Shown: positions 1 through 54,698 of the stretch, piece after piece
How positions within the stretch are numbered: the stretch's first letter is position 1
Layout: each line of letters begins with the position of its first letter
Origin: an uncultured Cytophagales bacterium
GTDB lineage: Bacteria; Bacteroidota; Bacteroidia; Cytophagales; Bernardetiaceae
Length of the DNA stretch: 64,000 nt
Assembly: GCA_963761725.1 (NCBI GenBank)
Contig: CAVXHP010000006.1
Span: 637,534-701,533 of the forward strand
Direction of reading: 5' to 3'
Made by a program: the position numbers and the translations under genes
Notes under the pieces: generated by a model
Databases searched by the model: none
The model's input: the letters and a program-made list of their open reading frames with translations, nothing else
What the model was told of the DNA's origin: nothing

Positions 1-1317
1 ATCAGTGGACAACTTCTCTCTACTTTAGATTCTATTACAAGAGCACAAAATCAAAATGGTTCGCATACCTATGAACTTCAATTTGAAGTAAAGAATGGAT
101 TAGCTTCAAGTAGCCAAAGTACAGAGCTTATTCTTCAACCCATGACAAAATATGATGTTCGTGATCCAAAAATTGCTTGGGAAGAAAACAAACGCAGAAG
201 AATAAATAAGTCTCAGATTATATCTGTTATTGCCGAAAAATTATTTTTTCAAAATCAAGAAAAACCTATCCAACATCGTACTAGTCGTCCTGTAATTGAT
301 TCAATTTTACAGGAGGAAATGCAGAATAAAGGTGTTGCATTGGATTATGATTTTGCAGTTTTTAATCACGCTCAAAAGAAATGGTATTTTGCAAGCCCTA
401 ATACAAGTAATGAGTTTTTAATTGAAACGAATTATTGTACAAAGCTGTTTCCGAATGATATGCGTAATCCAGACAATTTGTTGTGCGTCTATTTTCCTAC
501 CGAATCCAAGTATTTAATGGGGAAAATGGCAATGATATTATCGTCTTCTATTATTTTTATTGGTGTAATTATTTTGTGTTTTGGAGCTGCTATTTATACA
601 ATTATTCGTCAGAAAAAGGTATCTCAAGTAACCAATGATTTTATAAATAATATGACTCATGAGTTCAAAACTCCAATTGCTACTATTTCTCTTACTCGTG
701 AAATTTTGCAAGACCCTACTATTCAGCAGAGTCCAGAAAAAACAAATCGATATTTGGGAGTAATTGCAGATGAGAGCAAACGCCTTAGTGCACAGGTAGA
801 AAAAGTATTACAGGCAGCAAAATTGGATAGAAAAGATTTTAAATTAAATATAAAATCGTTAGATATTCATCAGATTATTGAAAAAGTAATTCGTAATAGT
901 GCTGTCCAAGTAGAGAATAGAGGAGGTAAAATTTTTACGGATTTGAAGGCGACCCAAACACTTTTCGAAGGCGATCAAGTGCATATTACTAGCATTGTTT
1001 CGAATCTTATAGATAATGCAAATAAATATTCGCCCGAAATACCACGCATAGAAATTCAAACCAAAAATACTTCAAATGGAATTTCAATCAAGTTTATTGA
1101 TGAAGGACAAGGAATTCCGAAGAAGGTAATGAACAAAATCTTTGATAAATTTTATAGAGTTCCCACAGGAAATGTCCACAATGTAAAAGGTTTCGGATTA
1201 GGACTCAGTTATGTAAAATCTATGGTGGAGGCACATCACGGAACAATAAGTGTAGAAAGTGAACTTGAAAAAGGTTCTGTCTTTACAATCAAATTACCTT
1301 TCAAACAACCTGTATAG
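1..1317 (+). CDS. Two-component sensor histidine kinase (HisKA + HATPase_c), 5' partial; reading frame is open from window position 1
   Basis: Frame 1 is open from nt 1 through the ATG at 142. TM segment (MAMILSSSIIFIGVIILCFGAAIYTII), H-box HEFKTPIATISL, N-box LIDNANKYS and G-box GFGLGLSYVKSMVEAHHG. Confidence 0.85.
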   Translation: MSGQLLSTLDSITRAQNQNGSHTYELQFEVKNGLASSSQSTELILQPMTKYDVRDPKIAWEENKRRRINKSQIISVIAEKLFFQNQEKPIQHRTSRPVIDSILQEEMQNKGVALDYDFAVFNHAQKKWYFASPNTSNEFLIETNYCTKLFPNDMRNPDNLLCVYFPTESKYLMGKMAMILSSSIIFIGVIILCFGAAIYTIIRQKKVSQVTNDFINNMTHEFKTPIATISLTREILQDPTIQQSPEKTNRYLGVIADESKRLSAQVEKVLQAAKLDRKDFKLNIKSLDIHQIIEKVIRNSAVQVENRGGKIFTDLKATQTLFEGDQVHITSIVSNLIDNANKYSPEIPRIEIQTKNTSNGISIKFIDEGQGIPKKVMNKIFDKFYRVPTGNVHNVKGFGLGLSYVKSMVEAHHGTISVESELEKGSVFTIKLPFKQPV

Positions 1318-1397
1318 AAATTGAGGAAAGGAGAAAAGGAGTTTAGAGAATGGGAAATATTTCATTGAAGTGTTTCCCATTTTTTATTTTTATCTTT

Positions 1398-3185
1398 TTA
1401 CCCAACTTTCAAACTCTTCAATAGAAAGTGTTTTAAGCGTTTTTGATTCTTCAAAAGTCCTCCTTTCTGAGCTATTTTTACGCCCCATTGTGTATCTTTC
1501 AAGCCTTCGATAGTGTGTGCATCAGGACTGATACAGAGCCAAACATTTTTTTGCATAGCGTAATTAATCCATTTCCAATCCAAATCCAGACGATACGGAT
1601 TTGCATTTATTTCTATGGCTACATTATATTCTGCACAGGCATCAATTATTTTTTGGTGGTCTATTGGATAGCCTTCTCTTCTCAAAAGTAGCCTTCCTGT
1701 TGGGTGTCCTAGTATTTTTGTGTATGGATTTTGAATAGCTTTGAGTAGTCTTTCCGTTGCTTTTTCCTCACTCATTCCCAAAACAGAATGCACAGAAGCA
1801 ATAACGACTTCAAAACCTTTTAATACATTCTCATTATAATCCAAACTTCCATCATTCAAAATATCGGATTCTATTCCTTTAAAGATACGAAAGGGAGCTA
1901 ATTTTTTATTAAGTTCTTCTATTTCTCTCCATTGCTGTTCTACTCGTTCTTTATTTAGTCCATTTGCATAAAAAGCAGATTGAGAATGGTCAGAAATTAC
2001 CAAATAAGAATGACCTAACTTTTGTGCAGCTAAAGCCATTTGCTCAATAGTATTCTGACCGTCGCTATACTTGGAATGGTTATGAATTGTTCCCTTTAAA
2101 TCTTCCAATTGCAAAAGGTCATTTTGATTATTTTCTTTTGCCCATTTCCATTCTTGTAAATCATTCTAAACCATTTCTCTGAAAAGCAGGAATAAAATTC
2201 GAACCTACTTTTTGATAAATTTCTTCTTCTGAATTTGCTTTTTGATAAGAAGCCGAAAGCAAGGAAGTTTCTAAATGATTCGGATTATTTGAGGAATAAT
2301 TAAGATGAGAAATGGAAGCCGATTCTCTCAAAAGTTTGCCATAAAAATTATATTTGTCGGTAAAATGAATTTGGATATTCAAATCAATTTCATCAAAATT
2401 TCCTTTCCATAAAAAAGGCGAATTTTCTTTTTTGTTTTTACTCTCACTTATTCCGTCCAAATTATTCAAAAACTCAACTACTTCTTTACTTGATTTATTT
2501 TCATGTAAAACAATTACAAAAGAAAGCGTATCAATAATCGGTTCGTGCCTTGCTACTTGTCCTGCAAGGCTTATTTTTTCTATTAGTTCTTTCTTATCTA
2601 TTTTTGGAAACTTTCTAAACTTTTGAGAATATAATCAGAATACTGAAAAGCAATATTGATACGCTGTTTTCCTTCCTGTTTTCCTAAAAATTCTATTTGA
2701 CTAGCTATATTTTCGGCTGTCTTTTTGCCGAACCCTTTTGTTTTTTCTAAAGAACCATCTTGGGTAGCTTCGTACAAATCCTGAACTGTTTCAATGTCTA
2801 GTTCTGTCCAAATAACACGAATTTTTTTTGCTCCCAAACCTTTAATATTCAACATTTCAAAAACTCCTACTGGCGTTTGTTCTGTAAGTTCGTTCAATTC
2901 TTTAAAACTTCCATTTTCTAAAAGTGAAGCTATTTTATCACTCATATTCTGACTAAAACCTAAAGCGATAAGTTCTTTTTGAGATAATTTTGCAGCTTCT
3001 TCGTTTAGATTTTCTAATCGTGTAGCTGTTCCAGTATAAGAACGTACTTTGAAAGGGTTTTCATTGTGAAGTTCTAGTAAAGAACCTGTTAGTTTGAAGG
3101 CTTGAGCAAGCTGTTTGTTAGTCATCTTTTGAAGTAGAAAGGGATAGAAAAGAGGTAGATTTATTTCTCTGGCAAAGATAAGCAA
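1398..3185 (-). pseudogene. polX: DNA polymerase X family (Pol beta-like N-terminal 8kDa/HhH domain + C-terminal PHP phosphoesterase), broken into at least 3 ORFs (2598-3185, 2161-2469, 1398-2114)
   Basis: N-terminal fragment has the PolX lyase/HhH signature (NPFKVRSY, GLGAKKI, GFGKKTAENI). C-terminal fragment has the PHP motif HNHSKYSDG...ISDHS. The three pieces total ~535 aa over ~1.79 kb, the size of an intact PolX. Frame changes and an uncovered 128-nt gap (2470-2597) separate the fragments. Confidence 0.65.
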
Positions 3186-3223
3186 AAACTACTATTCTTG
3201 TTTCCTTGTTTTGAAGCATTACA

Positions 3224-5146
3224 TCAAACTCTTAAACCCAAAATAGTCATATCATCTCGTTGAGCTTCTCCATCTTTGAAGGTTTCAAATTCTTCCAAAA
3301 GTTCTTGTTTTTGAGTAGCAAAAGGATGTTCTTTGATTTGCTCTAGTAGTTGAACTAATCTTTGAGTTCCATATTTTGTTCTTTTAATGTTGTTTTGGTC
3401 TGCAAATCCGTCTGTTGTGAGGTATAATGTATCACCAACTTTCAAGTGAATGGTATGTGTTACAAACTGTTGATTTTCCTGTTTTTGCTTTCCTCCTATA
3501 CTTCTTTTATTTCCTTTTATTTTCAAAAATTGACCTTCTTGAATGTAATAAAGTGGACGATGTGCTCCTGCAAAAGTTACCTGTTTTCCAAAATCTGTAT
3601 TTTCGATAGCACAAACTGCTACTTCCATGCCATCATCATTTTTTCCTTCATTTTGCTTTAGAGCGTGCTGAATTTCTAAGTGCAAAATTTCCAAAATCAT
3701 AGCAGGGTCATAGATTTTGCTCTGACCAATTATTTTATTCAAAAGCGTTTGTCCAATCATTGACATAAACGCACCTGGCACTCCATGTCCCGTACAATCT
3801 ACAACAGCAACAAAGGTTATCCGCTTTTTCCGATATACCCAGTAAAAATCTCCAGAAACTACTTTTTGAGGTTTGTAAATAACAAAACTATCTGAAAAAT
3901 ATTCGTTCAGTTCTGATTCGGTAGGCAAAACAGCATCCTGAATCTGACGAGCATAGCGAATAGAATCCATAATCTGAACTTGTGAACGTTCAATTTCTTT
4001 TGTCTTTACCTGACTTTCCTGCAAACTATTCTGTATTTTATTGAGCATCAAACCAAAGTCTTTCGAAAGCCAACCTATTTCATCGTTTGTACTAATCGGA
4101 CTAATAGAATAATTTTCTGAAAAATCATTTTTTATCACTTTATGAATAGATTTGGAAAGTTTACGAACAGGCAGGCTCAATTTCTTACTAATCAGATAGC
4201 TGACAAACATTCCCAAAATAAAACACAAAACAACAATAGCACCTAATGTATATTTTATTCGAAACGTAATTTCTTTCGCTTGTTGTTTGCCTTCTTCGTT
4301 CATCTCTGCTATGATATCAGCAATTTGATAGGCTTTTTGCTGCGTTTGGTGACGCATTCCTTGATGAACATTCAGTCCAATTTGTTTTTCATAATCTACC
4401 ATATCCAGAAACGCATATTGATACTTCCGAAGCAAGTCTAACATTTCTTCTTTACGTTTTTTATCTTTTACAGTTGAGCGAATATCTGCACGAAGCTCTT
4501 GAACGGAAAGAGAAAGCTTGTCAATATATGCTTCTTCTTTACGAATCATAAAATCTTTTTCGTGCCTTCTTACCATCAGTAATTTTTCTCTTTTGAAAGG
4601 CAAATCAGAGTTTTCTATCTCGTGAATAAACTTACGCATCTGTCCTACCTTCCCAAAATCTTTATGTCCTTTTCGCTCTACAATTTGCACAAGATGTTCA
4701 AAAAGTACTTCATATTCTCCTACGGCTTGCTGAAGTTTTAACAATTTTTTGTCAATAGTATCATTACGTAGTTCTTCTCTACTCTTGAGAGCTATTAAAC
4801 CCTTTTGAACATTATATAATTTCTTAATACGAGTGTTCAAATATTGGCTTTCTCCTGTTTTGTAGAAATCATTATTAATAGTTTCGTAGGTAAAAAAATC
4901 CTTTTCTAATCCGTTTAGCGTCTGAATATCAATATAGAGTTGTGTAAGAAGGTCTGTAATATTTACTATACGTTCTCGTTTTTCGTAAAACATAAAGATA
5001 GAACCTATGATAAGTGCCGTAAGAATTAAATAAACACTAAAATAAATTTGCAATTTATTTTTTATCCCTCTAAATTTTTTATTTGGCTGAACAGAAGTGG
5101 TAGAATTTTGAATCATTTTTGAAAAGTATAATTGTAAGCCAAGCAT
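3224..5146 (-). CDS. Membrane sensor protein with HAMP domain and C-terminal PP2C/SpoIIE-type Ser/Thr phosphatase (RsbU-like)
   Basis: N-terminal TM segment and periplasmic region. Second TM followed by a HAMP-like segment. C-terminal PP2C motifs GDFYWV, VDCTGHGVPGAFMSMIG, DGFADQ. Confidence 0.8.
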   Translation of the reverse strand: MLGLQLYFSKMIQNSTTSVQPNKKFRGIKNKLQIYFSVYLILTALIIGSIFMFYEKRERIVNITDLLTQLYIDIQTLNGLEKDFFTYETINNDFYKTGESQYLNTRIKKLYNVQKGLIALKSREELRNDTIDKKLLKLQQAVGEYEVLFEHLVQIVERKGHKDFGKVGQMRKFIHEIENSDLPFKREKLLMVRRHEKDFMIRKEEAYIDKLSLSVQELRADIRSTVKDKKRKEEMLDLLRKYQYAFLDMVDYEKQIGLNVHQGMRHQTQQKAYQIADIIAEMNEEGKQQAKEITFRIKYTLGAIVVLCFILGMFVSYLISKKLSLPVRKLSKSIHKVIKNDFSENYSISPISTNDEIGWLSKDFGLMLNKIQNSLQESQVKTKEIERSQVQIMDSIRYARQIQDAVLPTESELNEYFSDSFVIYKPQKVVSGDFYWVYRKKRITFVAVVDCTGHGVPGAFMSMIGQTLLNKIIGQSKIYDPAMILEILHLEIQHALKQNEGKNDDGMEVAVCAIENTDFGKQVTFAGAHRPLYYIQEGQFLKIKGNKRSIGGKQKQENQQFVTHTIHLKVGDTLYLTTDGFADQNNIKRTKYGTQRLVQLLEQIKEHPFATQKQELLEEFETFKDGEAQRDDMTILGLRV

Positions 5147-5978
5147 ATTCTATAAGCCTTAATTCTTAGTTACAAAATTACTAGAAAGCTACTTTAAAAG
5201 ACCACAAAACGTTTTGCTAAATAATTACACTTTTATAAATTTTGATAAAACATAGAGTTTAAAAATAAAAAATACTTCTTTAAAGTTAGATTAATAAAAG
5301 AATAAACATAACTTTTTATTTTAAAAAAGAGTCAAATTATTTTTATTTGAAGATTTTGTAAATTAATTGTTACAGCTAAAAACAAGTTTTTTCTATTAAT
5401 AAGTTGCTCAACAAGAGAAAGAAAATAGGAAATAAATAGGTTTTGATACATTTTTATTTCCTAAAGATAAAGTAGTAATTATGTTAGATGAAAAAGAAGT
5501 TGCTAAATTTTTGAAAGGAAAAATAGTACTAGAAAATAACAGCACTTTCTACTTCAATACTTACGTTTTTTAAATAAATAAGTGCGTTATCATTTTTGAT
5601 TTGTGAGATTGATAAATCACCTGAATTATTATTAGTTTTATTTTGGCAAAACGATAAGGAAATAAAACAGAAGTAAAGCAGAGTAATAAAACTAAATTTG
5701 TGTAGAAGTGAACTCATAACATTACTAACTAGTGATTGAATTGCAAAAAAAGCTAAATAATTCTTAAAACCTTTATGATAACTTTTATAAAAAACGGTGT
5801 AAAAACTAATTTATACCGTTCTTAGGTCATACTATTTGTGATATGCCAAATGAATGTATATTGGCAAGATTTTTTCCTTATAGTTTGTGATAGTTTTGTA
5901 CATTTAATTTTTGAGTCAAAAATTAGCCTTTTTACTCACTCTCATTATTTATCTTAATTTACCTTACGATAGAATTTT

Positions 5979-6818
5979 ATGAAAACTCGTTTTACTTCTA
6001 CTACTATTTTTTCAATTTTACTTTCTGCTTTCGGATTAGCTATTCTGATTTTGGGAAGTAGTTTTTTTCCTATTTCTTTGAAAGAAAATAAAGTATATTC
6101 CACTTCCTCTACTTTTCCTTCTACTTTTTTATTTCCTTCTCATTTGCTCAAAACCCAGCAAGACACAACAGGAATGGTTTTCGTAAAAGGAAGCGTTTTC
6201 AATATGGGTAGTACTGTCTTTGAAAATGAAATGCCCATTCATGAAGTGGAATTAGATGATTTTTATATTGGAAGATATGAAGTAACAGTAAAACAGTACC
6301 GAGAATTTTGTGAAGCAACAGGAAGAGATATGCCCAAAAAACCTATGTGGGGTTGGGATGATACGCATCCAATTGTTGGTATAACTTGGGACGATGCAAG
6401 TCAGTACGCAGAATGGGTAGGTAAAAGATTACCGACAGAAGCAGAATGGGAATATGCAGCACGAGGAGGTTTGAAAACTCAAAATTATATCTATGCAGGT
6501 GCAAATTATGCCGAAGTAGTAGGGTGGTTTGAAAAAAATTCAGTAGAAATGGTACAGCCTGTTGGTCTAAAAAGACCTAATGAATTAGGAATTTATGATA
6601 TGTCTGGAAATGTTTGGGAATGGTGTTCTGACCATTATGGACGATATAGACAATTGCGTGAAAAAAATCCTAAAGGTGTCCCGCAAGGACTGAATCGTTG
6701 CGTTAGAGGAGGTAGTTGGTTTGGAAATAAAGGAAATCTACGTACAGCAAATCGCTATTACAATCCTCAAGGTTTTGGTAGTAATTTGATTGGATTTAGA
6801 GTAGTAATGGATAAATAA
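5979..6818 (+). CDS. FGE-sulfatase / formylglycine-generating enzyme (SUMF1)-like domain protein with N-terminal signal/TM segment
   Basis: Motifs GRYEVTVKQYREF, WEYAARGG, YDMSGNVWEWCSD, RCVRGGSWF are typical of the FGE-sulfatase (DUF323) fold. Confidence 0.75.
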   Translation: MKTRFTSTTIFSILLSAFGLAILILGSSFFPISLKENKVYSTSSTFPSTFLFPSHLLKTQQDTTGMVFVKGSVFNMGSTVFENEMPIHEVELDDFYIGRYEVTVKQYREFCEATGRDMPKKPMWGWDDTHPIVGITWDDASQYAEWVGKRLPTEAEWEYAARGGLKTQNYIYAGANYAEVVGWFEKNSVEMVQPVGLKRPNELGIYDMSGNVWEWCSDHYGRYRQLREKNPKGVPQGLNRCVRGGSWFGNKGNLRTANRYYNPQGFGSNLIGFRVVMDK

Positions 6819-6820
6819 TC

Positions 6821-6925
6821 AGTTATCAGTTATTAGTTATTAGTTATTAGTTATTAGTTATTAGTTATTAGTTATTAGTTATCAGTTATTAGTTATTAGT
6901 TATCAGTTATTAGTTATTAGTTATA
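6821..6925. repeat. Heptamer tandem repeat (AGTTATY) x15, starting right after the stop of 5979..6818
   Basis: Direct reading: agttatc/agttatt units with no interruption over 105 nt. Confidence 0.9.
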
Positions 6926-6983
6926 GAGTGCGAAACTGCGTTTCTCTGATAATTATTGTAAATGAAAGTTTTTTAATAAAAAA

Positions 6984-7043
6984 AATTCGTAATTCGTAAT
7001 TCGTAATTCGTAATTCGTAATTCGTAATTCGTAATTCGTAATT
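6984..7043. repeat. Heptamer tandem repeat (AATTCGT) x8, between convergent gene ends
   Basis: aattcgt repeated 8 times then a partial unit. The same heptamer recurs at 47771-47795 and degenerate copies occur at 49041 and 54455-54532. Confidence 0.9.
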
Positions 7044-7060
7044 ATAATAAAATTAACTGA

Positions 7061-8386
7061 TTACTGTTCACTGATTACTGACTTAAGTTCCCAGTTTGCA
7101 GCATCTTGGTAGATTTCTCTGTTTGCTTCTTGAAATGCTTTTTGTGCTTCTGCGTAGTTTTCCATTCGTTTATAACATAACCCTAACAGAAAATAGTATT
7201 TCGAACGGTCTTCGTTTTCTAGTTTTGGAAACTGTTTGAATAGTTCTTTTAATACTACAATTCCCTCCTTATCTCTCACTGTTTTATAATTAGAAAGAGC
7301 TTTTAAAAAGTAGATTTCGTGTTTATTTTTTTCTAAAAACAAACACGAATCTGCCATTTTTATAGCTTCATTATACCGTTTTTCGTGTACATAAAGGCGT
7401 GTAAGATCAGCATAATAATTTGCATTTCTCTCCTTTGAATACTCTACTTTTCTTCTCAAAAAATTAATCACATCAGATTTGTCATCTTTTCGTCCTTCTA
7501 CTTGATTGATAAAAATTTGTGCAGGCGAATAATCTGGCTTTATAATAAGAGCAGTTTGGAGATAGCGAAGACTTCTATCAAAATCATATAGAAAAAAATA
7601 AACATAACCCAAATTATAATAATATTGAGGTGCCGTATTTTCTAACTCTGTTTTAAGTTTTTCATCCTTTATGCGTGCATAATACGTTTTCATTTCTTCT
7701 AAATCTTGCATACGAAAAGCACAACTGGTATAAATAAAAGCAGCTTTTTGAATGGGGTAAGCGTTTGAAGACGTTTTTTCTAAGATAGCTTTTGTGAGTT
7801 TTTGAGCCGTTTGATAGTCTGAATTTTGATACAAAATATTCGCTAAACAAAGAGCAATAGGAGGAGGAATATTATTTATATCTTCACTTTTGAGATAATC
7901 AGTTGCATAGCCTAGCGTTTTTTTATCAAATTTACTAACCTGATCAGAAAGAATAATTATACTTCCTAAAATTATACTTTTCTCTTCTTTATCAGAACTA
8001 GAAACATGTGATAATGCTGTTTCATAGTACGAAAATGCTTGTGGAATAGAATCCACTTTTTCATGCAAAATCCCTAATCTATAATTGGCTTCAAAATTAG
8101 TTTTGTCTACTTTAATGGCTTCTTTGTAGAGTTCAACAGCTTTTGGAATGTTTTTTAATTGTTCTAAATAAAAACCTGTATAATATAATAGTTCTGTATT
8201 TTCTGAATCTGCACTTAATTCTGTTCTCAAAAGATTTAATCCATCTTGAGGGTTTCCATTTTGAGCCATTTCTACAGCTTGTGTGTAAACTTTTGGTTGT
8301 GCTTGTAAAAAATTTACAGTAAAAAGTATAAAAAATAGAAAACTATTCAAAATAAAAAATCTAATAAATAACAAATTATTTCTCAT
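7061..8386 (-). CDS. TPR-repeat protein with N-terminal signal peptide
   Basis: Hydrophobic N-terminus. Recurring TPR-like A/Y/L patterns (ELYKEAIKVDKTNFEANYRLG, AFSYYETAL, AEAQKAFQEA). Confidence 0.7.
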   Translation of the reverse strand: MRNNLLFIRFFILNSFLFFILFTVNFLQAQPKVYTQAVEMAQNGNPQDGLNLLRTELSADSENTELLYYTGFYLEQLKNIPKAVELYKEAIKVDKTNFEANYRLGILHEKVDSIPQAFSYYETALSHVSSSDKEEKSIILGSIIILSDQVSKFDKKTLGYATDYLKSEDINNIPPPIALCLANILYQNSDYQTAQKLTKAILEKTSSNAYPIQKAAFIYTSCAFRMQDLEEMKTYYARIKDEKLKTELENTAPQYYYNLGYVYFFLYDFDRSLRYLQTALIIKPDYSPAQIFINQVEGRKDDKSDVINFLRRKVEYSKERNANYYADLTRLYVHEKRYNEAIKMADSCLFLEKNKHEIYFLKALSNYKTVRDKEGIVVLKELFKQFPKLENEDRSKYYFLLGLCYKRMENYAEAQKAFQEANREIYQDAANWELKSVISEQ

Positions 8387-35841: not shown

Positions 35842-35859
35842 TAACTAACTGTTTGATTA

Positions 35860-35881
35860 CGCACACTAAAGTGTACGCTAC
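35860..35881. repeat. 22-bp palindromic element CGCACACTAAAGTGTACGCTAC (reverse complement of the copy at 13437-13458)
   Basis: Exact 22/22 match to the reverse complement of GTAGCGTACACTTTAGTGTGCG at 13437-13458. Confidence 0.6.
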
Positions 35882-35955
35882 ATAAATGCAAAAACTCTTT
35901 CTATTGACTTAGGAAGAGTTTTTTTTGTGTTCACAAAGTAAATCAAAAAAATAAG

Positions 35956-46500: not shown

Positions 46501-47681
46501 TCGGTGTTTTGAACGAAAAAACAAGTTTGATAGAATTTAGAGGTTATTCTGTTGAAGGACAACCACTTAATTATGATTTTAACGCAGCAAGAGATAAGAC
46601 ATTACTTTCTGCTTGGGCAATCCGAAATCAGAAAGAAGTAAAGATAGGAGATTTGCAAAGCGAATATGCAAAATATGTAGCTGGAGAAGTAGTAGCAGTA
46701 GGAACTACAATTCCAAAATCGCTTATTTATTTACCTTTAGCTATCAAAAATCGTCCTGTTGGTGTTCTGACTGTACAATCTTTGGAAAAGGGTGCGTACT
46801 CTGACCGTCATTTGACATTACTAAAAGGTCTTGCTTCTTACGTTTCGATTGCACTAGATAATATTCAAAATTATTCAGAATTAGGACAAGCCAAGAATAC
46901 AATTCAGGAAAGTAGTGTTCGTATTATGGACAGTCTGCGTTATGCTCAAACCATTCAGCAAGCCATTTTGCCTACCGATGATATGCTTCAAAGTAGTTTT
47001 GATGATTCTTTCATGATTTTCAGACCAAAAGATGTAGTTTCTGGAGATTTTTATTGGCTCAGAGAAATAGAAGGACGTACTTTTATTGCTGCTGTTGATT
47101 GTACAGGACACGGAGTTCCAGGAGCTTTTATGTCTATGATTGGAAGTAGATTGCTCAATGAAATTATTAATGAAGCAAATATACTTGAACCTGCCAAAAT
47201 TTTAGATGAATTACATATTCGTTTGAAAAATGCACTAAAGCAAGAAGAATCAAGAAATGACGACGGTATGGATGTTTCTTTGTGTAGAATTGATGCACTA
47301 GAAGAAGATACATTAGAACGAGAAATTGTTTTTGCAGGAGCAAAACGTCATGCAGTTTGGGTAAGTAGAGGAGAATCTCATATTTTGAAAGGAGATAAAA
47401 AGTCTATTGGAGGTTGGAGAAAGAGTAAAAAACGTCCGTTTATACAACTTCAAATGACTGCAAAAAAAGGAGATGCTCTTTATTTATTTACAGATGGGAT
47501 AACAGACCAGAATAATATCGCAGGTGCAAAATACGGCTCAAAACGTTTGCATCAATTATTAAATCAAAGTTCAGATTTTGATATGGGTGAGCAAAAAACT
47601 ATTTTGGAAGAAGATTTAGACCGCCATCAGGGAAATCAAAAGCAAAGAGATGATATTACTCTTATTGGAATCAGACTGTAA
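43503..47681 (+). CDS. Large sensor protein: two-component-regulator beta-propeller repeats + Y_Y_Y domain, TM, coiled coil, GAF, C-terminal PP2C/SpoIIE Ser/Thr phosphatase
   Basis: Multiple Reg_prop repeats (W.GT..GL..YD). Y_Y_Y-like region (YMYKLEGFDNEWHYT...YILRVKAANSDGYWNE). TM after it. GAF. PP2C motifs GDFYWL, VDCTGHGVPGAFMSMIG, DGITDQ. Confidence 0.75.
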   Translation: MKSLSSKFLSSTHSIILPKQISLFFEGIFSLSFFALSFIGYLAILLVFFFGNTVSLFAQKTNSIQLQEQQNQQTQAIMGLRFKGFDSDDGLAQNNVTAILQDTRGFVWIGTGDGLSKYDGYEFKNYTHIVEDSSSLSAGMVTALHQDAQGILWVGTTNGINKYDFTKDRFIQYRLKESRISNLNTRTVRSIFQDSNETLWIGTENGIKIYDKLNNSIEYSQEYNGLLEVPVLALYEDNDSTFWVGTENGLYKLDRQRRAFVPVFVDGTQLTQFPVYTFFEDRQQNLWVGTQEGAFKLDRKRKKAKKYSSTSFPTTLSNDIVKTISQDKKGDIWIGTYGGGINRLITTTGQVATIRQNEAEQYSLSDDIVQTIYHDRSGILWIGTYDGLNKYDEEKEVFYNYPIPLQYVARNLQKEVWAVEEDYLGNTWIGTEEGLYVYMPKPESTQWELTKIGDKLGLKNKHIVSLLEDKKGTLWIGTLQDGLYKYNLKSLGVGGNSTTEAIPFDLTNLANKKAEINLQLADNSIWTMMQDTYNDIWIGTNNGLYTIKDKTEKVNKYTERDGSGLSDNSIWALLQDRYGVVWVGTSNGLNRFRKQSRDFITYNQANNDSGGLSNGYIVTLFEDETGVLWAGTHGGGLNRFHKEADNFTHYTEKDGLPDGVIYAIEQDNSRHLWISTNRGLSRFNIDTQVFNNYDVNDGLPSNRFNHNAVEKTKNGELIFGTVYGITVFHPDSIKDNNYIPPVYLTNLKVLGRDIRAGDGTGILTRNIAQTDMITLPHGQNSFAVDFVALNYRLPKKTVYMYKLEGFDNEWHYTTYRNHTASYTNLPEGREYILRVKAANSDGYWNESGATLRIYINPPYWEAIWFRIALAMLLIGAGASFWFWRNGEMQKQKNRLSMEVHQRTNELEEEKEKLQTAYNEISNQSRQILDMNAVLKQKQTEVMIQRDDLSKQRNEIENSYQNVRVLSDIGQQVTATLDFDQMVGVLYQHVNSLMNAPGFGIGVLNEKTSLIEFRGYSVEGQPLNYDFNAARDKTLLSAWAIRNQKEVKIGDLQSEYAKYVAGEVVAVGTTIPKSLIYLPLAIKNRPVGVLTVQSLEKGAYSDRHLTLLKGLASYVSIALDNIQNYSELGQAKNTIQESSVRIMDSLRYAQTIQQAILPTDDMLQSSFDDSFMIFRPKDVVSGDFYWLREIEGRTFIAAVDCTGHGVPGAFMSMIGSRLLNEIINEANILEPAKILDELHIRLKNALKQEESRNDDGMDVSLCRIDALEEDTLEREIVFAGAKRHAVWVSRGESHILKGDKKSIGGWRKSKKRPFIQLQMTAKKGDALYLFTDGITDQNNIAGAKYGSKRLHQLLNQSSDFDMGEQKTILEEDLDRHQGNQKQRDDITLIGIRL

Positions 47682-47683
47682 TT

Positions 47684-47739
47684 GGAGAATGAGAGTTGGA
47701 GAATGGGAATTGGAGAATGGATAATGGAGAATGGAGAAT
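47684..47739. repeat. Heptamer tandem repeat (GGAGAAT) x8 immediately after the stop codon
   Basis: ggagaat gagagtt ggagaat gggaatt ggagaat ggataat ggagaat ggagaat. Confidence 0.85.
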
Positions 47740-47770
47740 TATCATAACTAGAATTTTTATAACAAGAAAA

Positions 47771-47795
47771 AATTCGTAATTCGTAATTCGTAATT
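47771..47795. repeat. Heptamer tandem repeat (AATTCGT) x3 abutting the stop of the GNAT gene
   Basis: Same heptamer as 6984-7043. Confidence 0.85.
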
Positions 47796-48280
47796 TAAAC
47801 CTTATAAATCATTTTGTAGTGTTTTATTCCACTTTCATCAAAAATATCTCCATCTTTTTTGAATCCACAACGCTCATATAACGAAACAGCAGTTAATTGG
47901 GCATGTAAATAAATCATCTCTACAGTCTTGAATTCTTCTTTTTTCTGAATTTGTTCTAAAATAAACTCTACCATCTTTTGTCCTGTTTTTTTTCCTCTGT
48001 CTTCTTCCAAGACAGCAAAACGCTCCAATTTTATTCTCTTAGGAGAATTATCTTTATGCTTTTGTGTTATTCTAAAACGAGCCGTTCCGACAGCTTTTCC
48101 GTTGCCATACTTCTCTTCATCAATTGCTAAAATATGAGTAGCTATTTTGTCTAACCCATCCAAATCATCTTCTTCTGGGACATCTTGTCCTTCTATAAAA
48201 ACAATCCTGCGAATAGAAAAAGCACGCTCTAGTTTTTCTGAGTTTTCTGATGGGGTGCCTTCGAAAATCTGAATATTCAT
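47795..48280 (-). CDS. GNAT-family N-acetyltransferase
   Basis: Acetyl-CoA binding motif RFAVLEEDRGKKTGQKMV and the C-terminal YERCGF. Confidence 0.7.
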   Translation of the reverse strand: MNIQIFEGTPSENSEKLERAFSIRRIVFIEGQDVPEEDDLDGLDKIATHILAIDEEKYGNGKAVGTARFRITQKHKDNSPKRIKLERFAVLEEDRGKKTGQKMVEFILEQIQKKEEFKTVEMIYLHAQLTAVSLYERCGFKKDGDIFDESGIKHYKMIYKV

Positions 48281-48747: not shown

Positions 48748-48999
48748 CAATATGAGTGTCATTGGCGAAAATCGAAACAAGTATTTGTTAGCTACAGAGT
48801 AGCGTAACCTTTGTAGAAAAAGAATAAGAATTGATTTGAAAAGCTACAGCGTAGCGTAACCTTATTTTTAATTCTAATTTCATGAAAGTTGCAAGGTTTC
48901 GCTACGCTGTAGCTCTAATGAAGGTTATTATTTACTGTTCTACCAAGGTTACGTTGCGATGCAACTAAAACTCAATACTTAGAAATGACACTCATATTG
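48748..48999. mobile_element. MITE-like element copy 4 (252 bp), TSD ATTTTA, 59 bp downstream of copy 3
   Basis: Perfect TIRs. Flanking ATTTTA (48742-48747 / 49000-49005). Internal hairpin carries a compensatory pair change (CAGCGTAGCG/CGCTACGCTG vs CAGAGTAGCG/CGCTACTCTG in copy 1). Confidence 0.8.
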
Positions 49000-49086
49000 A
49001 TTTTAATTCGTAGTTTTTAATTGACTTCGTCGCTTTGACAGGTCGTAATTCGTAATTATTTAATTCATTCATAAATTCATAAAATT

Positions 49087-49554: not shown

Positions 49555-49646
49555 ATTTTGCACACAGTTTTAATCAAAAAAGCCATTTCTATTTATGTAG
49601 AGATGGCTTTTTTGATGTAGTATAACTTATGATTTGTAACCAAAAA

Positions 49647-51202: not shown

Positions 51203-52250
51203 TTATTTATTAATAAATTGTTTTATTAGAAGAATAATTTTTTGAACCTGTTTTACATAAAAAGGCAGTTTGTTGTAATCTAAAACAAAAAATAATTTTT
51301 CTTCACTTCCAAAACTAGTATTAAAACGAGCTATTTCTTTTTCTTGTGCCGATTCAAAATCTAAGATTTTAGATACATTACCAATTGGTTCCTTTTCTTG
51401 ATTACTTTTTTCTTGAATAAACTTATCTAAAAACCACCTTCTGCTTTCATTTTTTTGACTATTTTCTTTTGTAGCTGCATTAAATAGATAAATCCATTTT
51501 GTACTAGAGTAATTTTGATTATTCTTTTGATAAAAGGACTCACTTTTTATCAACATAATTCCACTCACAATTTTGCCTTTGCTATTTTGAATATAAACCA
51601 ATTTAGTCAAATCTTTTTCTATCAATATTTTGAAAAGAATTTTCAAAGTTTGCTTCGCCTGACTTGATACTCCATTTTTCAAAAAAACACTTTCTTCAAA
51701 AAAACCATATAATAAATCAATATTATTACCTTCTATAATTTTGAAATTTTGTTTTTTAGCTCTATTGATTTTGTTTTTAGTATTCTGTTTATAATTTTGA
51801 CGAATTTTAGAATACTTATGCTGCAAAGAAAGATGATGTGTTTTGTATTTTTTTAAAACTTTACTATCAAATACTTCTTCAAAAATCTCATTGTACTCTT
51901 CGTAATTTGTAGTATTGAATGGATAATTTGAAACTAAATCAAAATTTCTTTTGAAGTAAAATTAAAAAAGCTTTGAATTCTAAATTAGACAATTTTTGAG
52001 TAGAAAAAATTCCCAATTGTTGTGCAAAAAGAGGTATGTTGCAAGAAATAAAATTCCGTATTTTTTCTTAACAGGCAAGGGGAAGTACAGCTACATAATT
52101 TTGATTCTTATCTTCTAAAATAAATGCTTCCCAAGCAGGAGAAACACAATCCAAATACCACGAAAAGGCATAAATTATATTTTCTTTTGAAGAAGAAATA
52201 CAATTATCCCATTTTTTTTTGTTTATTTGATGATGTTTGAAATACTTCAA
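51203..52250 (-). pseudogene. FemAB/BioF2-like GNAT acetyltransferase (PF13480-like), apparently disrupted (fragments 52068-52250 and 51203-51826)
   Basis: N-terminal fragment (KKKWDNCISSSKENIIYAFSWYLDCVSPAWEAFIL) resembles the start of PF13480 proteins. Combined span ~349 codons matches family length. Uncovered segment between fragments. Confidence 0.4.
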
Positions 52251-52256
52251 ATGGGA

Positions 52257-52425
52257 TATTAGGAATTAGAGATTAGGAATTAGGAAAATACAGTTTTGAA
52301 TTACAGAGGTATTAGAGGAACTGCAGAGTTAGCAGGGAAATTAGGGATTAGGAATTAGGAAAATACAAATATAGTTTTGAACCACAGAGGTAAGAGAGTT
52401 AAGAGAGGAACTGCAAAGTCAGCAT
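52257..52425. repeat. ~80-bp tandem direct repeat x2 (ATTAGGAATTAGGAAAATACA..GTTTTGAA..ACAGAGGTA..GAGGAACTGCA.AGT.AGCA)
   Basis: Two adjacent units with ~80% identity read directly. Followed at 52476-52496 by (AACTGAT)3, the reverse complement of the CAGTTAT heptamer at 6821-6925. Confidence 0.7.
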
Positions 52426-52473
52426 AGCAATAAATTTTATACTTCTAACTTTATTCAACTGGTTACATTACTG

Positions 52474-53367
52474 CTAACTGATAACTGATAACTGAAAAGC
52501 CATTTCTTGCTGAATTTGCTGTGCTGCTTTGGCTGCCATTTCTGCAAAATCTCTGTCTTTGCTGGCATAGATAATCTGACGAGAAGAGTTTATCAGAAGT
52601 CCACATTCTTTTGTAAGTCCTGCTTTTGATACTTCTGCTAAATTTCCTCCTTGAGCTCCAACTCCTGGAACCAACAAAAAATGATTGGGTATTATTTTGC
52701 GAATATTCTCTATGTATTCTGCCTTTGTTGCACCCACAACATACATTAGATTTTCTTCTGTCCCCCATTCTTTACTTTTTTCTAAAACTTCTTCATATAC
52801 TTTTTTTCCATTTTTGAGTTCTAACATTTCAAAATCTTCTGCACCCGAATTTGAAGTAAGAGCTAACAGAATTGTCCATTTATTTTTTATTTCTAAAAAA
52901 GGTTTTACAGAGTCTTCTCCCATATAAGGTGCAACTGTAATGGCATCACAATTCAAGTTTTCAAGAAATGCTTTTGCATATTGAGTAGAAGTATTTCCAA
53001 TATCACCTCGTTTTGCATCAGCAATAATAAAGACATTGTGAGGTAAGTATTCAATTGTTTTTTGCAGACTTTCCCACCCTTTTGTTCCTAGAGCTTCGTA
53101 AAAAGCAGTGTTTAGTTTGTAAGAAACAGCATATTTTTCTGTCGCATCAATAATGCGTTTATTAAACTCAAAAATAGGGTCTTTTGCATTTAATAAATGA
53201 AACGGAATTTTTTTAATATCACTATCCAAACCTACACAAAGGTAAGATTCTTTAGCTTTTATTTGAGAGATGAGTTTAGTGCGATTCACTTTTAATATAT
53301 GTTGTGTCGTTGGTGGAGACACCAACAACGGCGAAGAGAAATGAGTTTTGAAACCAATTTTATACAA
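52474..53367 (-). CDS. pyrF: Orotidine 5'-phosphate decarboxylase (type 2)
   Basis: [35 protein letters not shown] motifs. The N-terminal ~25 codons of the track ORF are encoded by a REP-like hairpin, so the true start is probably further 3'. The C-terminal codons overlap the heptamer repeat. Confidence 0.85.
53301..53332. repeat. REP-like hairpin GTTGTGTCGTTGGTGGAGACACCAACAACGGC
   Basis: Near-identical to 25930-25954, and shares the CCGTTGTTGGT/ACCAACAACGG core with the 40735-40918 element. Confidence 0.55.
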
Positions 53368-53444: not shown

Positions 53445-54449
53445 CTAATATTGCTGTAATGTATTCTCCAATTCTGCTTGTATTTGTTTGGCTAATGGAT
53501 TTGGACTAAGCACACGAACCGACGAACCATATCCCAAAATCATCATTTTGAGTTCGTAATTTACAATCAAATGCAAACGAATTCTATATTCATTATCATC
53601 TTCTACCAAAACTTCCTGTGTGTGATGAAGAGGTTGAGATTTGATATACTTTCCTTGAAAAACATCAAAGCTCAAAACTACATCTTCTGGTTTTTGATTC
53701 AGAGCCGAAACACCAATACAGTAATGATAAAATTCTTCTGGATTGAATTTGGCTTGTTCGGGAGTAATGAAAAGGGACTCATCTGATGGTTCTATGTCCA
53801 TTATTCTATCCAAACCAAAGGTTCTGACTTCATTGTATTTTCTTACCCACCCAATTAAATACCACATATTACGGTATTCTTTTAATAGATAAGGATGAAT
53901 ATTGTAAGGTTTTGTATGTGGTTCATTGTGTTTTTGATAGAATATTTTGATTACATTTTGCTCTGAAATATGATAAATCAAATCCTTTAACTGGTGCGTT
54001 CCTTTTCCTTTATAGATCGATTGTTCGACTTGAATAATTCGCTGTACATTTTTTTGGATTTCCGAACTTTTAGCAATTTCCATTCCGTCCAAAACTTTAT
54101 CTACTGCACCAGAAAACTCATTGAAAATAGGTAATTCTCTAAATTCTCCCAAAAGAGATTCTACAAAAGCCATAGCAAGCTGCTCATCATCAGAAAGATT
54201 GACAGACAAAAATTTGTACTTTGCATCTGAATACGAATAGCCTTTCATTTTTTTATTGTAATCAATCGGTGCATCAAATTCATCACGCATAGCAGCCAAA
54301 TCTTTTTCGATGGTAGAAGCTGAAGAAACACCAAAACGCTCTCTACACGCCTCCAACAATTCATCTTTAGTAGGAAAAGGTTTGAATTTGCTGCGTAACA
54401 TTTGATCGATGAGCAAATAGCGAAAAAAAGCGAGTTTGGTAGCTGCCAT
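53445..54449 (-). CDS. WYL-domain transcriptional regulator (N-terminal HTH + WYL domain + C-terminal WCX-like region)
   Basis: N-terminal HTH pattern FFRYLLIDQMLRS...FPTKDELLEACRERFG. Signature WYL motif in NMWYLIGWVRKYNEVRTFGLDRI. Confidence 0.75.
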   Translation of the reverse strand: MAATKLAFFRYLLIDQMLRSKFKPFPTKDELLEACRERFGVSSASTIEKDLAAMRDEFDAPIDYNKKMKGYSYSDAKYKFLSVNLSDDEQLAMAFVESLLGEFRELPIFNEFSGAVDKVLDGMEIAKSSEIQKNVQRIIQVEQSIYKGKGTHQLKDLIYHISEQNVIKIFYQKHNEPHTKPYNIHPYLLKEYRNMWYLIGWVRKYNEVRTFGLDRIMDIEPSDESLFITPEQAKFNPEEFYHYCIGVSALNQKPEDVVLSFDVFQGKYIKSQPLHHTQEVLVEDDNEYRIRLHLIVNYELKMMILGYGSSVRVLSPNPLAKQIQAELENTLQQY

Positions 54450-54454
54450 AAATG

Positions 54455-54532
54455 AATTACGAATTATGAATTATAAAATAATCAGCGTAGCTAATTAAAA
54501 ATTACGGATTACGAAATAATAAGTGTAGCTAA
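54455..54532. promoter_or_regulatory. Two ~35-40 bp direct repeats (AATTACGAATTATGAATTATAAAATAATCAGCGTAGCTAA / AATTACGGATTACGAAATAATAAGTGTAGCTAA) immediately upstream of the WYL regulator gene
   Basis: Direct repeats read from the sequence. They contain TTACGAATT, the reverse complement of the AATTCGT heptamer. Confidence 0.5.
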
Positions 54533-54698
54533 ACGATAGTTTGGTAAAGACAATTAAAGATTATTATTTTCTTTGACTATGAAAGGCAAAACAACTTTTA
54601 TGTCAAATCATATTTCTAACAAAAAACGCATTTTAAAATGGCTTTGCCAAAAAAATAATGAGTTTTTTATTATTTGAAAGATAATGTATGCCTTATCT

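Follow-up and report, generated by a model that had tools for sequence, protein, structure and literature searches.

Why do tandem repeats of a 7-nt unit lie so tightly against the stop codons of genes, and what keeps them there? The question is raised by a stretch of 64,000 nucleotides (the window) from an uncultured Cytophagales bacterium of the Bernardetiaceae (GenBank assembly GCA_963761725.1, contig CAVXHP010000006.1, positions 637,534 to 701,533 of the forward strand), where heptamer arrays occupy the gap between the convergent FGE-sulfatase and TPR genes (the FGE/TPR gap) and that between the convergent GNAT and PP2C regulator genes (the GNAT/PP2C gap). The window has a G+C content of 31% and comes from a marine Bernardetia (formerly Flexibacter); Bernardetia litoralis DSM 6794 and further isolates of this genus share 83-86% identity with its proteins. 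In the analysis described here, the evidence is best fitted by slippage-driven heptanucleotide simple sequence repeats (SSRs) that are tolerated at gene boundaries, a reading that we consider probable. Between species, the arrays keep their position and period but change in copy number and in the sequence of the unit, which is the life cycle of a microsatellite.

The initial annotation of the window had described heptamer arrays of unrelated sequence at convergent gene ends. Every array that it named is present, with coordinates that are exact or off by 1-3 nt, and its assignment of the flanking genes is correct: by Pfam content these are an FGE-sulfatase, a TPR protein, a Reg_prop/Y_Y_Y/GAF/SpoIIE regulator, a GNAT acetyltransferase and an OMP decarboxylase. 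The arrays and the sequence between the first two are as follows.

6820-6924, + strand: (YAGTTAT)15, made of 11 TAGTTAT and 4 CAGTTAT units with 94% matches; the first base lies 1 nt past the FGE-sulfatase stop (6816-6818).
6925-6983: unique 59-nt core (GAGTGCGAAACTGCGTTTCTCTGA...GTTTTTTAATAAAAAAA) that separates the two arrays of the FGE/TPR gap.
6984-7043, + strand: perfect (AATTCGT)8.6 array (Tandem Repeats Finder, TRF).
7053-7081, - strand: degenerate CAGTAAT run of about 4 units that straddles the TPR stop (7061-7063) and is inverted with respect to 6820-6924.
47680-47740, + strand: degenerate array of GGAGAAT / AATTGGAGAATGAG, roughly 8 units long, that begins within the stop of the propeller-GAF-PP2C gene (47679-47681).
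47771-47795, - strand: (AATTACG)3.6 in the GNAT sense, equal to a perfect (AATTCGT)3.6, that begins within the GNAT stop (47795-47797) and is followed by AATTTTTTC.
48995-49060, - strand: AATTACG-type units in the divergent GNAT/DUF4293 gap, with the DUF4293 start codon 27-90 nt downstream.
52258-52286 and 52339-52361, + strand: two (AATTAGG)3-4 blocks in the space that separates pyrF from its downstream neighbor.
52467-52495, - strand: (CAGTTAT)3 plus CAGTAAT, overlapping the pyrF 3' end (stop 52474-52476).
54452-54532, - strand: AATTCGT/AATTCAT units that end 2-3 nt upstream of the start codon of the WYL gene (ATG 54447-54449), with a TRF run at 54452-54474.

Period and placement of the arrays

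The excess is specific to a period of 7. Six exact period-7 arrays were counted in the window, compared to 0.0 in shuffled sequences, and periods of 8-12 gave 0-1. In 229 kb of Bernardetia DNA, 32 period-7 arrays were counted and at most 8 of any other period. The special standing of period 7 is thus borne out both in the window and in Bernardetia DNA. The arrays consist of head-to-tail 7-nt units beyond chance length, as is typical of long SSRs. They are mostly non-coding, rare within genes save at the very ends, and few between divergent genes. According to the initial annotation, arrays of random period that are equally frequent inside genes or in 5' regions would point to generic slippage without function. 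The period is specifically 7, and the arrays avoid gene interiors.

The AATTCGT unit was followed across bacteria by a scan for (AATTCGT)4, with one genome per species. This family occurs in at least 120 genome stretches; the following figures are among the matches listed. Most of them are from Nostocales. Other hosts are Pontibacter, Saprospiraceae, Flavobacterium, Fluviicola and Pyrinomonadaceae, and further Ignavibacteria, Chloroflexota, Planctomycetota and a Vibrio. Across 870 kb of these stretches, TRF returned 313 period-7 arrays of 90 unit classes, with 21 as the next period (n = 25). Placement was assessed for 92 AATTCGT arrays with both flanking open reading frames (ORFs), called by a simple long-ORF rule. 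A stop codon lies at most 5 nt away from 40 of the 92, compared to 12.4 expected under uniform placement (3.2-fold), and a start codon from 9 of the 92, with 6.9 expected. As to the gaps, 53 of these arrays are in co-directional, 32 in convergent and 7 in divergent ones.

Within Bernardetia, six independent stop-codon sites carry adjacent arrays, and a second class of arrays lies 1-9 nt before start codons. About 10% of the gene 3' ends in the window bear arrays. The non-random placement at stop codons that the initial annotation had noticed is therefore real and general, yet for other heptamers it was known before from published work. The stronger statement, that all arrays begin within 3 nt of a stop, holds for those of the FGE-sulfatase, PP2C and GNAT genes (after the stop) and of the TPR and pyrF genes (straddling it). 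It does not hold for 6984-7043, 52258-52361, the divergent 49040-49060 and the start-abutting array at 54452.

Some of the arrays reach into coding sequence. The CAGTWAT units at 7053-7081 encode the TPR protein tail ..KSVISEQ directly before the stop (translation read by hand). At pyrF, the third unit has been mutated to CAGTTAG and supplies the stop codon; the tail encoded by the array is ..FQLSVIS.

Further details of the individual arrays can be added here. The FGE array appears in TRF as (AGTTATT)14.9 at 6821-6924 (94% matches); in the sense of the FGE gene it belongs to the TAACTGA family as the complement TCAGTTA. Read in the TPR sense, 6984-7043 is (AATTACG)n followed by AATTTTTTTT, and the TPR stop is 17 nt away. 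The run that straddles this stop is reported by TRF as degenerate ACTGATT units at 7056-7081, and the pyrF array as (ACTGATA)3.7 at 52470-52495. The array at 47680-47740 has 77% matches and 14% indels, and is called a TGGAGAA/14-mer array by TRF. The units at 48995-49060 are broken by a 21-nt insert at 49023-49043, leaving a TRF period-7 run at 49043-49057. The AATTAGG blocks, at a distance of 112-187 nt from the pyrF stop, both sit in a segment of about 80 nt that is partly duplicated. The region 54452-54532 also holds a tandem duplication with a 38-nt period, and TAATTCGTAATTNATNT-ATG before the WYL gene is conserved in three genomes.

A rule by which the units after stop codons would stand in a stop-free orientation was tried and rejected. 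TAGTTAT, AATTGTG and AATTGTT contain stops, and in cyanobacteria the stop-containing orientation is the more common one (29 vs 13 among the matches listed). The cyanobacterial AATTCGT arrays after stops mostly have the opposite orientation to those of Bernardetia.

Orthologous history in Bernardetia

The same loci were compared in six related assemblies, three of them derived from metagenomes and the others being those of B. litoralis, MNP-M8 and ABR2-2B (individual genome stretches are cited by their L numbers). At the FGE stop, 15 copies are present in the window, 12.7 in MNP-M8, 4.7 in L128 and 1.6 in B. litoralis. In the most distant genome, L129, the site is occupied by (TTGGGAG)9, which begins right behind the TAG. 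The 59-nt core (6925-6983) is kept at the site in four of five genomes; as a dispersed repeat it was not found in the sampled Bernardetia DNA. The orthologues of the 6984-7043 array have 6.7 copies in L128, about 2 in MNP-M8 and 1.7 in B. litoralis.

The unit at the GNAT stop is (AATTACG)3.6 in the window, (AATTGTG)4.6 in L131 and (AATTGTT)2 in L130. In ABR2-2B, 2+2 AATTACG units are separated by a 21-nt insert, and in B. litoralis there are 0 copies. The latter species is therefore nearly array-free at these sites (1.6 and 0 copies), with a small hairpin at GNAT as the sole compensating feature. Behind the stop of a 1090-aa gene, AATTCAC is found in L004 and L128, and AATTCGT in L129. The relatives carry 2-4 CCTAATT units where the window has the 52258-52361 blocks, and 2-3.6 units at the pyrF 3' end. 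Here, one extra unit alters the protein tail: it reads ..QLSVIS in the window, versus ..QLSVTK or ..QLSVTS in the relatives. All orthologous Bernardetia sites that were examined have colinear flanks, and even the low-copy species possess a short seed there.

Each array is bound to the boundary of one gene, and this position is kept across Bernardetia species. Copy number changes in place, from about 0-2 to 15, and the unit of a whole array can be replaced. The arrays can also enter the last, dispensable codons of a gene, as in the pyrF and TPR tails. The comparison of copy numbers, which the initial annotation had proposed between strains, shows wide swings between species, with 1.6-15 copies at the FGE stop and 0-4.6 at the GNAT stop. 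Its description of the unit sequences as unrelated was, however, overstated: a few drifting families (AATTNNN, CAGTWAT and TTGGAG-like) swap at orthologous sites.

Several other features came to light at these loci. The gene downstream of pyrF (window 51203-52250, - strand), which has 357-380 aa in the relatives, has fallen apart into three ORFs (60, 32 and 207 aa); in L130 it is split, too. This is probably a pseudogene or the result of assembly frameshifts. The gap between the RlaP-like and WYL genes (54530-54670) is about 94% identical to L130 across 177 nt and is largely kept in ABR2-2B. It is better conserved than the neighboring proteins (about 80%) and likely represents a promoter/operator or a small RNA; no Rfam match was found for 54530-54670.

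The 21-nt element (ACCTGCCAAAGCAGCGAAGCT) is exactly three units long and lies in phase, directly behind an AATTACG unit. Its copies are at 49023-49043 in the window (- strand, 5 mismatches), 10478-10498 in L127 and 11007-11027 in L004 (- strand). The loci concerned are the ABR2-2B GNAT stop, the MNP-M8 FGE/TPR gap and the GNAT/DUF4293 gap of the window, and the element is missing from the orthologous sites of the other genomes compared. Identical copies were found in three AT-rich metagenome contigs (L151, L201 and L224) by a scan with a 15-mer, the matches of which were mostly due to chance. The element has the look of a mobile repeat of very small size for which heptamer arrays serve as landing sites.

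In Nostoc spp. (L021, L042, L054 and L060), a related G+C-rich element of 35-40 nt (GACGCT..CGCTAAC..) breaks into AATTCGT arrays after AAT, and behind it the array resumes, analogous to the 21-nt insert in Bernardetia. A contig of Dolichospermum sp. ST_sed8 (L070, JAKOGY010000182.1) contains nine AATTCGT blocks at 398-6617, with 4-7 units and most with exactly 4. One long ORF (417-4424, - strand) encloses five of the 4-unit blocks, all with AATT behind them (mostly AATTATTAGA-like). Either mini-elements have been inserted here, or the blocks are an artefact of a sediment assembly of 4x coverage.

Convergent gaps, slippage and its rivals

The initial annotation had tied the arrays to convergent transcription. 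However, only 2 of the approximately 10-11 convergent gaps of the window contain them. At least four of the array-free convergent gaps fold into strong hairpins, and three of these four (1318-1397, 35842-35955 and 49555-49646) display the A-run, G+C-containing hairpin and T-run of canonical bidirectional terminators. Judging from this layout, ordinary intrinsic terminators are in use in this host. A general role of the arrays as a device of convergent gaps is not supported. The relatives do not support the link either. In L127, L130 and L131, two extra genes are located between GNAT and PP2C, which are then not convergent neighbors. The GNAT stop keeps its heptamer run in all three (just 2 copies in L130); the PP2C stop clearly keeps its array in L131 only, where the gap is co-directional. 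There, degenerate repeats behind the PP2C stop match the PP2C-proximal 40-55 nt or so of 47680-47740. Since in the relatives the arrays stand behind the same genes although the gaps are co-directional, and few convergent gaps have arrays, convergence is incidental.

The GNAT/PP2C gap itself has a history of its own. When window 47682-47794 is compared to L131 10487-11697, about 1.1 kb is deleted in the window. The lost DNA holds two genes, one of 142 aa and one for a DUF6272 protein, both present in three relatives. The left edge of the deletion is within the first codons of the lost gene (ATGATAATTC) and the right edge within an (ATTCTCC)n array. As both junctions have ATTCT in common, the sequences suggest that an array-mediated microhomology deletion made this gap.

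The slippage reading can be put as a sequence of steps. Short seeds beside a stop or start codon would grow and shrink by strand slippage during replication, also in steps of several units, of which the repeated CTT pattern in units 10-15 of 6820-6924 may be an example. A mutated unit would spread across the array by the same slippage process. The arrays would survive only where extra unstructured, AT-rich DNA is harmless, namely in the untranslated stretch behind a stop, in a dispensable C-terminal tail or in the leader just before a start. It follows from such survival that the sharp borders of the arrays would mark the onset of purifying selection and not a targeting mechanism. Two arrays in one convergent gap would then be a by-product, each gene having its own array, and the GNAT/PP2C pairing would also reflect the deletion of the two intervening genes. 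No dedicated function is needed for this reading, and it is in line with the independence of the arrays from convergence and with their near-absence in one healthy species, B. litoralis.

Slippage accounts for the size and variability of the arrays; their placement needs an extra ingredient, be it tolerance or function. A number of points weigh against the reading given above. Slippage alone leaves the presence of seeds exactly at stops unexplained, and it gives no reason for a period of 7. The 3.2-fold enrichment at stops fits function equally as well as tolerance, and some array is kept at the FGE stop in all five of the species examined. The three B. litoralis assemblies, which represent one strain, are identical at the FGE site. 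The TAACTGA and AATTCGT units recur in distant phyla despite the quick drift of units in Bernardetia. Finally, the CAGTWAT family has the same gene-relative orientation at three independent stops (FGE, TPR and pyrF), and the opposite orientation before a start (L131 11543-11576, forward, 3 nt ahead of the start codon, as well as 12 of the 14 sets in MacGregor 2015). Replication-strand bias cannot explain this orientation, because both genes of a convergent pair conform to it. It hints at an effect at the transcript level.

Such an effect is at the center of the first rival, in which the arrays would serve as functional cis-elements: a protein would bind them, one unit per 7 nt, either in the transcript or in single-stranded DNA. 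Candidate binders would be a cold-shock/S1-type OB-fold protein or Rho; arrays behind stops would set the formation or stability of mRNA 3' ends, and those before starts would tune translation initiation. The significant adjacency to stop codons across phyla and within Bernardetia, the second class of arrays 1-9 nt before starts and the consistent orientation of the CAGTWAT family all favor it. The array is moreover kept at the same stop despite a change of unit, as if period 7 itself were retained, and both array-bearing convergent gaps are without the canonical hairpin terminators seen in other gaps. From the literature, CspB binds heptamer repeats with one protein per unit (as cited in PMC4679880), and Xanthomonas transcripts begin or end at G-rich heptamers more often than at controls (PMC4692102). 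However, orthologous sites differ in the sequence of the unit, copies drop to 0-2 in B. litoralis with nothing compensating save the small GNAT hairpin, only about 10% of the gene 3' ends in the window bear arrays, and the cyanobacterial arrays mostly have the opposite orientation, as noted above. We therefore regard a cis-element as possible but rather unlikely. Sequence-specific protein binding, as in the protein-binding arrays of the initial annotation, is hard to reconcile with whole-array unit changes at one site. The change of unit argues against recognition of a specific sequence, not against recognition of the period. If mobile DNA or horizontal transfer, and not local slippage alone, had instead seeded and spread the arrays, with heptamer blocks or small elements housed in them inserting at gene ends, one could understand why distant phyla have identical units. 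The abrupt start of arrays a few nt past stops, without degenerate units upstream, would favor this. The 21-nt element after AATTACG at three loci in three genomes, missing at the orthologous sites of relatives, points in this direction, as do the similarly interrupted Nostoc arrays, the nine blocks of the Dolichospermum contig and the horizontal spread of TAACTGA argued for by MacGregor 2015 (PMC4679880). Nevertheless, mobile seeding seems quite improbable: at every orthologous site the colinear flanks and the seed in low-copy species indicate in-place growth, target duplications and terminal inverted repeats are lacking, none of the unique cores is a dispersed repeat, arrays carry the 21-nt element as a passenger and do not originate from it, and the Dolichospermum contig may be an assembly artefact. 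The cores had also been considered as dispersed repeats or miniature inverted-repeat transposable elements (MITEs), and this was rejected: BLAST of all array-bearing gaps against the 229 kb of Bernardetia DNA gave orthologous matches only.

Could the paired arrays of a convergent gap form a long imperfect hairpin, acting as a bidirectional terminator or as a buffer for transcription/replication collisions? The initial annotation had stated that the arrays are not hairpins. This is true of each array alone, but the CAGTTAT array behind the FGE stop and the CAGTAAT units of the TPR gene form an inverted pair. In + strand RNA, (UAGUUAU)n is able to pair with (AAUUCGU)n through G.U pairs. The region 6816-7064 folds at -52.1 kcal/mol, compared to -32.9 kcal/mol for shuffles (z = -5.4), with an outer stem of inverted CAGTTA units and inner stems of (UAGUUAU)n with (AAUUCGU)n. 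The low-copy gap of B. litoralis (L001 10862-10992) is bracketed by a 15-nt inverted repeat (AATCAGTTATCAGTG / CACTGGTAACTGATT), which would likewise favor a hairpin, and has a nested inverted repeat of 9-10 bp (ATTTCTCTGA / TCTAGAGAAAT); its fold reaches a z of -2.1 only. Against this, the - strand of the FGE/TPR gap folds weakly (z = -2.0), the + strand of the GNAT/PP2C gap equals its shuffles (z = -0.48), and pairing at 6 or more of 7 positions occurs by chance in 10.6% of AT-rich heptamer pairs. The arms are very unequal in the relatives (12.7 vs 2 copies), no U-tract lies behind the hairpin, and the same arrays occur in co-directional gaps, which also speaks against a collision buffer. 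The arrays lack the G+C-containing stem-loop directly before a U-tract by which intrinsic terminators are defined. A terminator scan found no terminator-like site within 6819-7060. In a comparison aimed at the idea that arrays are 3'-UTR filler between stop and terminator, the 60 nt behind stop-adjacent arrays were not more structured or terminator-like than those after other stops (-8.7 vs -9.0 kcal/mol). Hairpin terminators were rejected as an explanation of the arrays, and a long hairpin of paired arrays as a bidirectional terminator or collision buffer is very unlikely. In a search for known RNA families, the window gave no Rfam match at gathering scores, and permissive thresholds returned noise. 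Least likely of all, and scarcely credible, are contingency loci, in which the number of units would shift the frame at the 3' end and thereby switch C-terminal tails. A 7-nt unit always shifts the frame, the pyrF tails differ between species and the TPR tail is encoded by repeats. Yet only the last 5-7 residues are affected, most arrays lie wholly behind the stop and there is no sign of on/off switching. Phase-variable SSRs, which lie in a promoter spacer or early coding region and switch surface or host-interaction genes on or off, are a different matter in both position and gene content: here the arrays occupy leaders, the final 5-7 codons or the DNA behind stops, and the genes (pyrF, FGE-sulfatase, TPR, GNAT and the PP2C regulator) are housekeeping or regulatory ones and not surface antigens.

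A wider functional reading extends beyond the genus. Period-7 arrays at stops and starts could be one protein-read module shared across phyla, namely by Bacteroidota, Nostocales, Beggiatoaceae and Xanthomonas. We hold this to be unlikely. If true, a single-strand-binding protein would recognize the module in the transcript by measuring out steps of 7 nt. Period, position and gene-relative orientation would matter, not the exact unit. The module would set the fate of the mRNA 3' end after stops and Shine-Dalgarno-independent initiation before starts, and the arrays would also serve the 21-nt mobile mini-elements as in-phase landing pads.

Relation to known repeats

Two comparisons lead to the cyanobacteria. 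Elhai and co-workers are said to have described, in 2008 (Genome Res 18:1484; cited in PMC3116915), mobile repeats of very small size from Nostoc. These reportedly measure 21-27 nt, with dispersed near-identical copies that are present or absent at orthologous sites. The 21-nt insert of Bernardetia shares these characteristics and resembles the Nostoc repeats, as reportedly described, in size, dispersal and presence/absence without target duplication. It differs in phylum and sequence, and in its number of copies, which amounts to three genomic and a few metagenomic ones here.

Mazel and co-workers are said to have described the cyanobacterial STRR (short tandemly repeated repetitive) sequences in 1990 as tandem heptanucleotides, with several unit families per genome. 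They are reportedly mostly intergenic and variable between strains. The arrays of the window resemble them in their 7-nt units, and AATTCGT arrays are abundant in Nostocales. They are not STRR sequences in the strict sense: the host is a Bernardetia, from the Bacteroidota, and not a heterocystous cyanobacterium, and the Bernardetia units differ from CCCCAGT, TTGGTCA and CAACAGT, which we take to be those of STRR1-3. A cyanobacterial origin of the window, first considered because the repeats resemble STRR, was rejected on the basis of Pfam content (DUF4293, Reg_prop/Y_Y_Y) and of the 83-86% protein identity to Bernardetia.

For prokaryotes in general, heptanucleotides are the most common long SSR, for which polymerase slippage was proposed (Mrazek, Guo and Shah 2007, summarised in PMC4679880). 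In a survey of 7006 genomes, no other tandem repeat was as abundant between genes as the heptamers, and 'no clear clue' to their function was seen (Mori et al. 2019, PMC6344855). For this most frequent intergenic tandem repeat of prokaryotes, no explanation is generally accepted for either the number 7 or the closeness to stop codons. The long-SSR surveys are statistical and do not follow single sites through orthologous genomes, whereas the unit change described here is such a history. What is new is this clean orthologous series, in which one stop codon is followed through five species with 1.6-15 copies and a different unit in one of them. Position and period outlast sequence, which makes a sequence-specific binder unlikely; models based on period or position, or on pure tolerance, stand. 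The range of the AATTCGT heptamer has moreover been extended over many phyla. For annotation, it is relevant that the arrays can encode and frame-shift the last residues of ordinary proteins, and that they may mediate deletions.

The placement has its closest published counterpart in the G-rich GGGAATC / GGGGAYT heptamers of Xanthomonas and Nostoc, about 90% of which are intergenic (Rehm et al. 2015, PMC4692102). These show a strong bias to 0-50 nt from the stop of the upstream ORF, or overlap it, and are depleted between divergent genes. Their length and sequence vary between species, and no function was found (PMC4692102). They can, however, form G-quadruplexes and prefer 4 copies, whereas the Bernardetia units are AT-rich, form no such structure and reach up to 15 copies.

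The unit itself has its counterpart in the TAACTGA direct repeats of Beggiatoaceae, 15 cyanobacteria and 5 Bacteroidetes (MacGregor 2015, Front Microbiol, PMC4679880). In F. litoralis DSM 6794, 14 TAACTGA sets were reported, of which 12 are forward and lie 1-43 nt before starts; one set is near the end of purC (PMC4679880). Rotating CAGTTAT gives TCAGTTA, which is the complement of TAACTGA; the genus, too, is the same. Other heptamers, too, fill the same intergenic regions in other Bacteroidetes (PMC4679880). Unit and lineage therefore agree, and the typical forward position before starts does not: the published sets are mostly of that kind, whereas the sets of the window are reverse and lie after or across stops, as in the published minority class. 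In addition, 11 of the 15 units at 6820-6924 are the one-base variant TAGTTAT and only 4 of the 15 are exact. The FGE locus is absent from the published sets because B. litoralis has just 1.6 copies there. The arrays of the window thus belong to a known class of heptamer repeats, in which CAGTTAT/TAGTTAT represents the published TAACTGA family and AATTCGT a second family that is common to several phyla.

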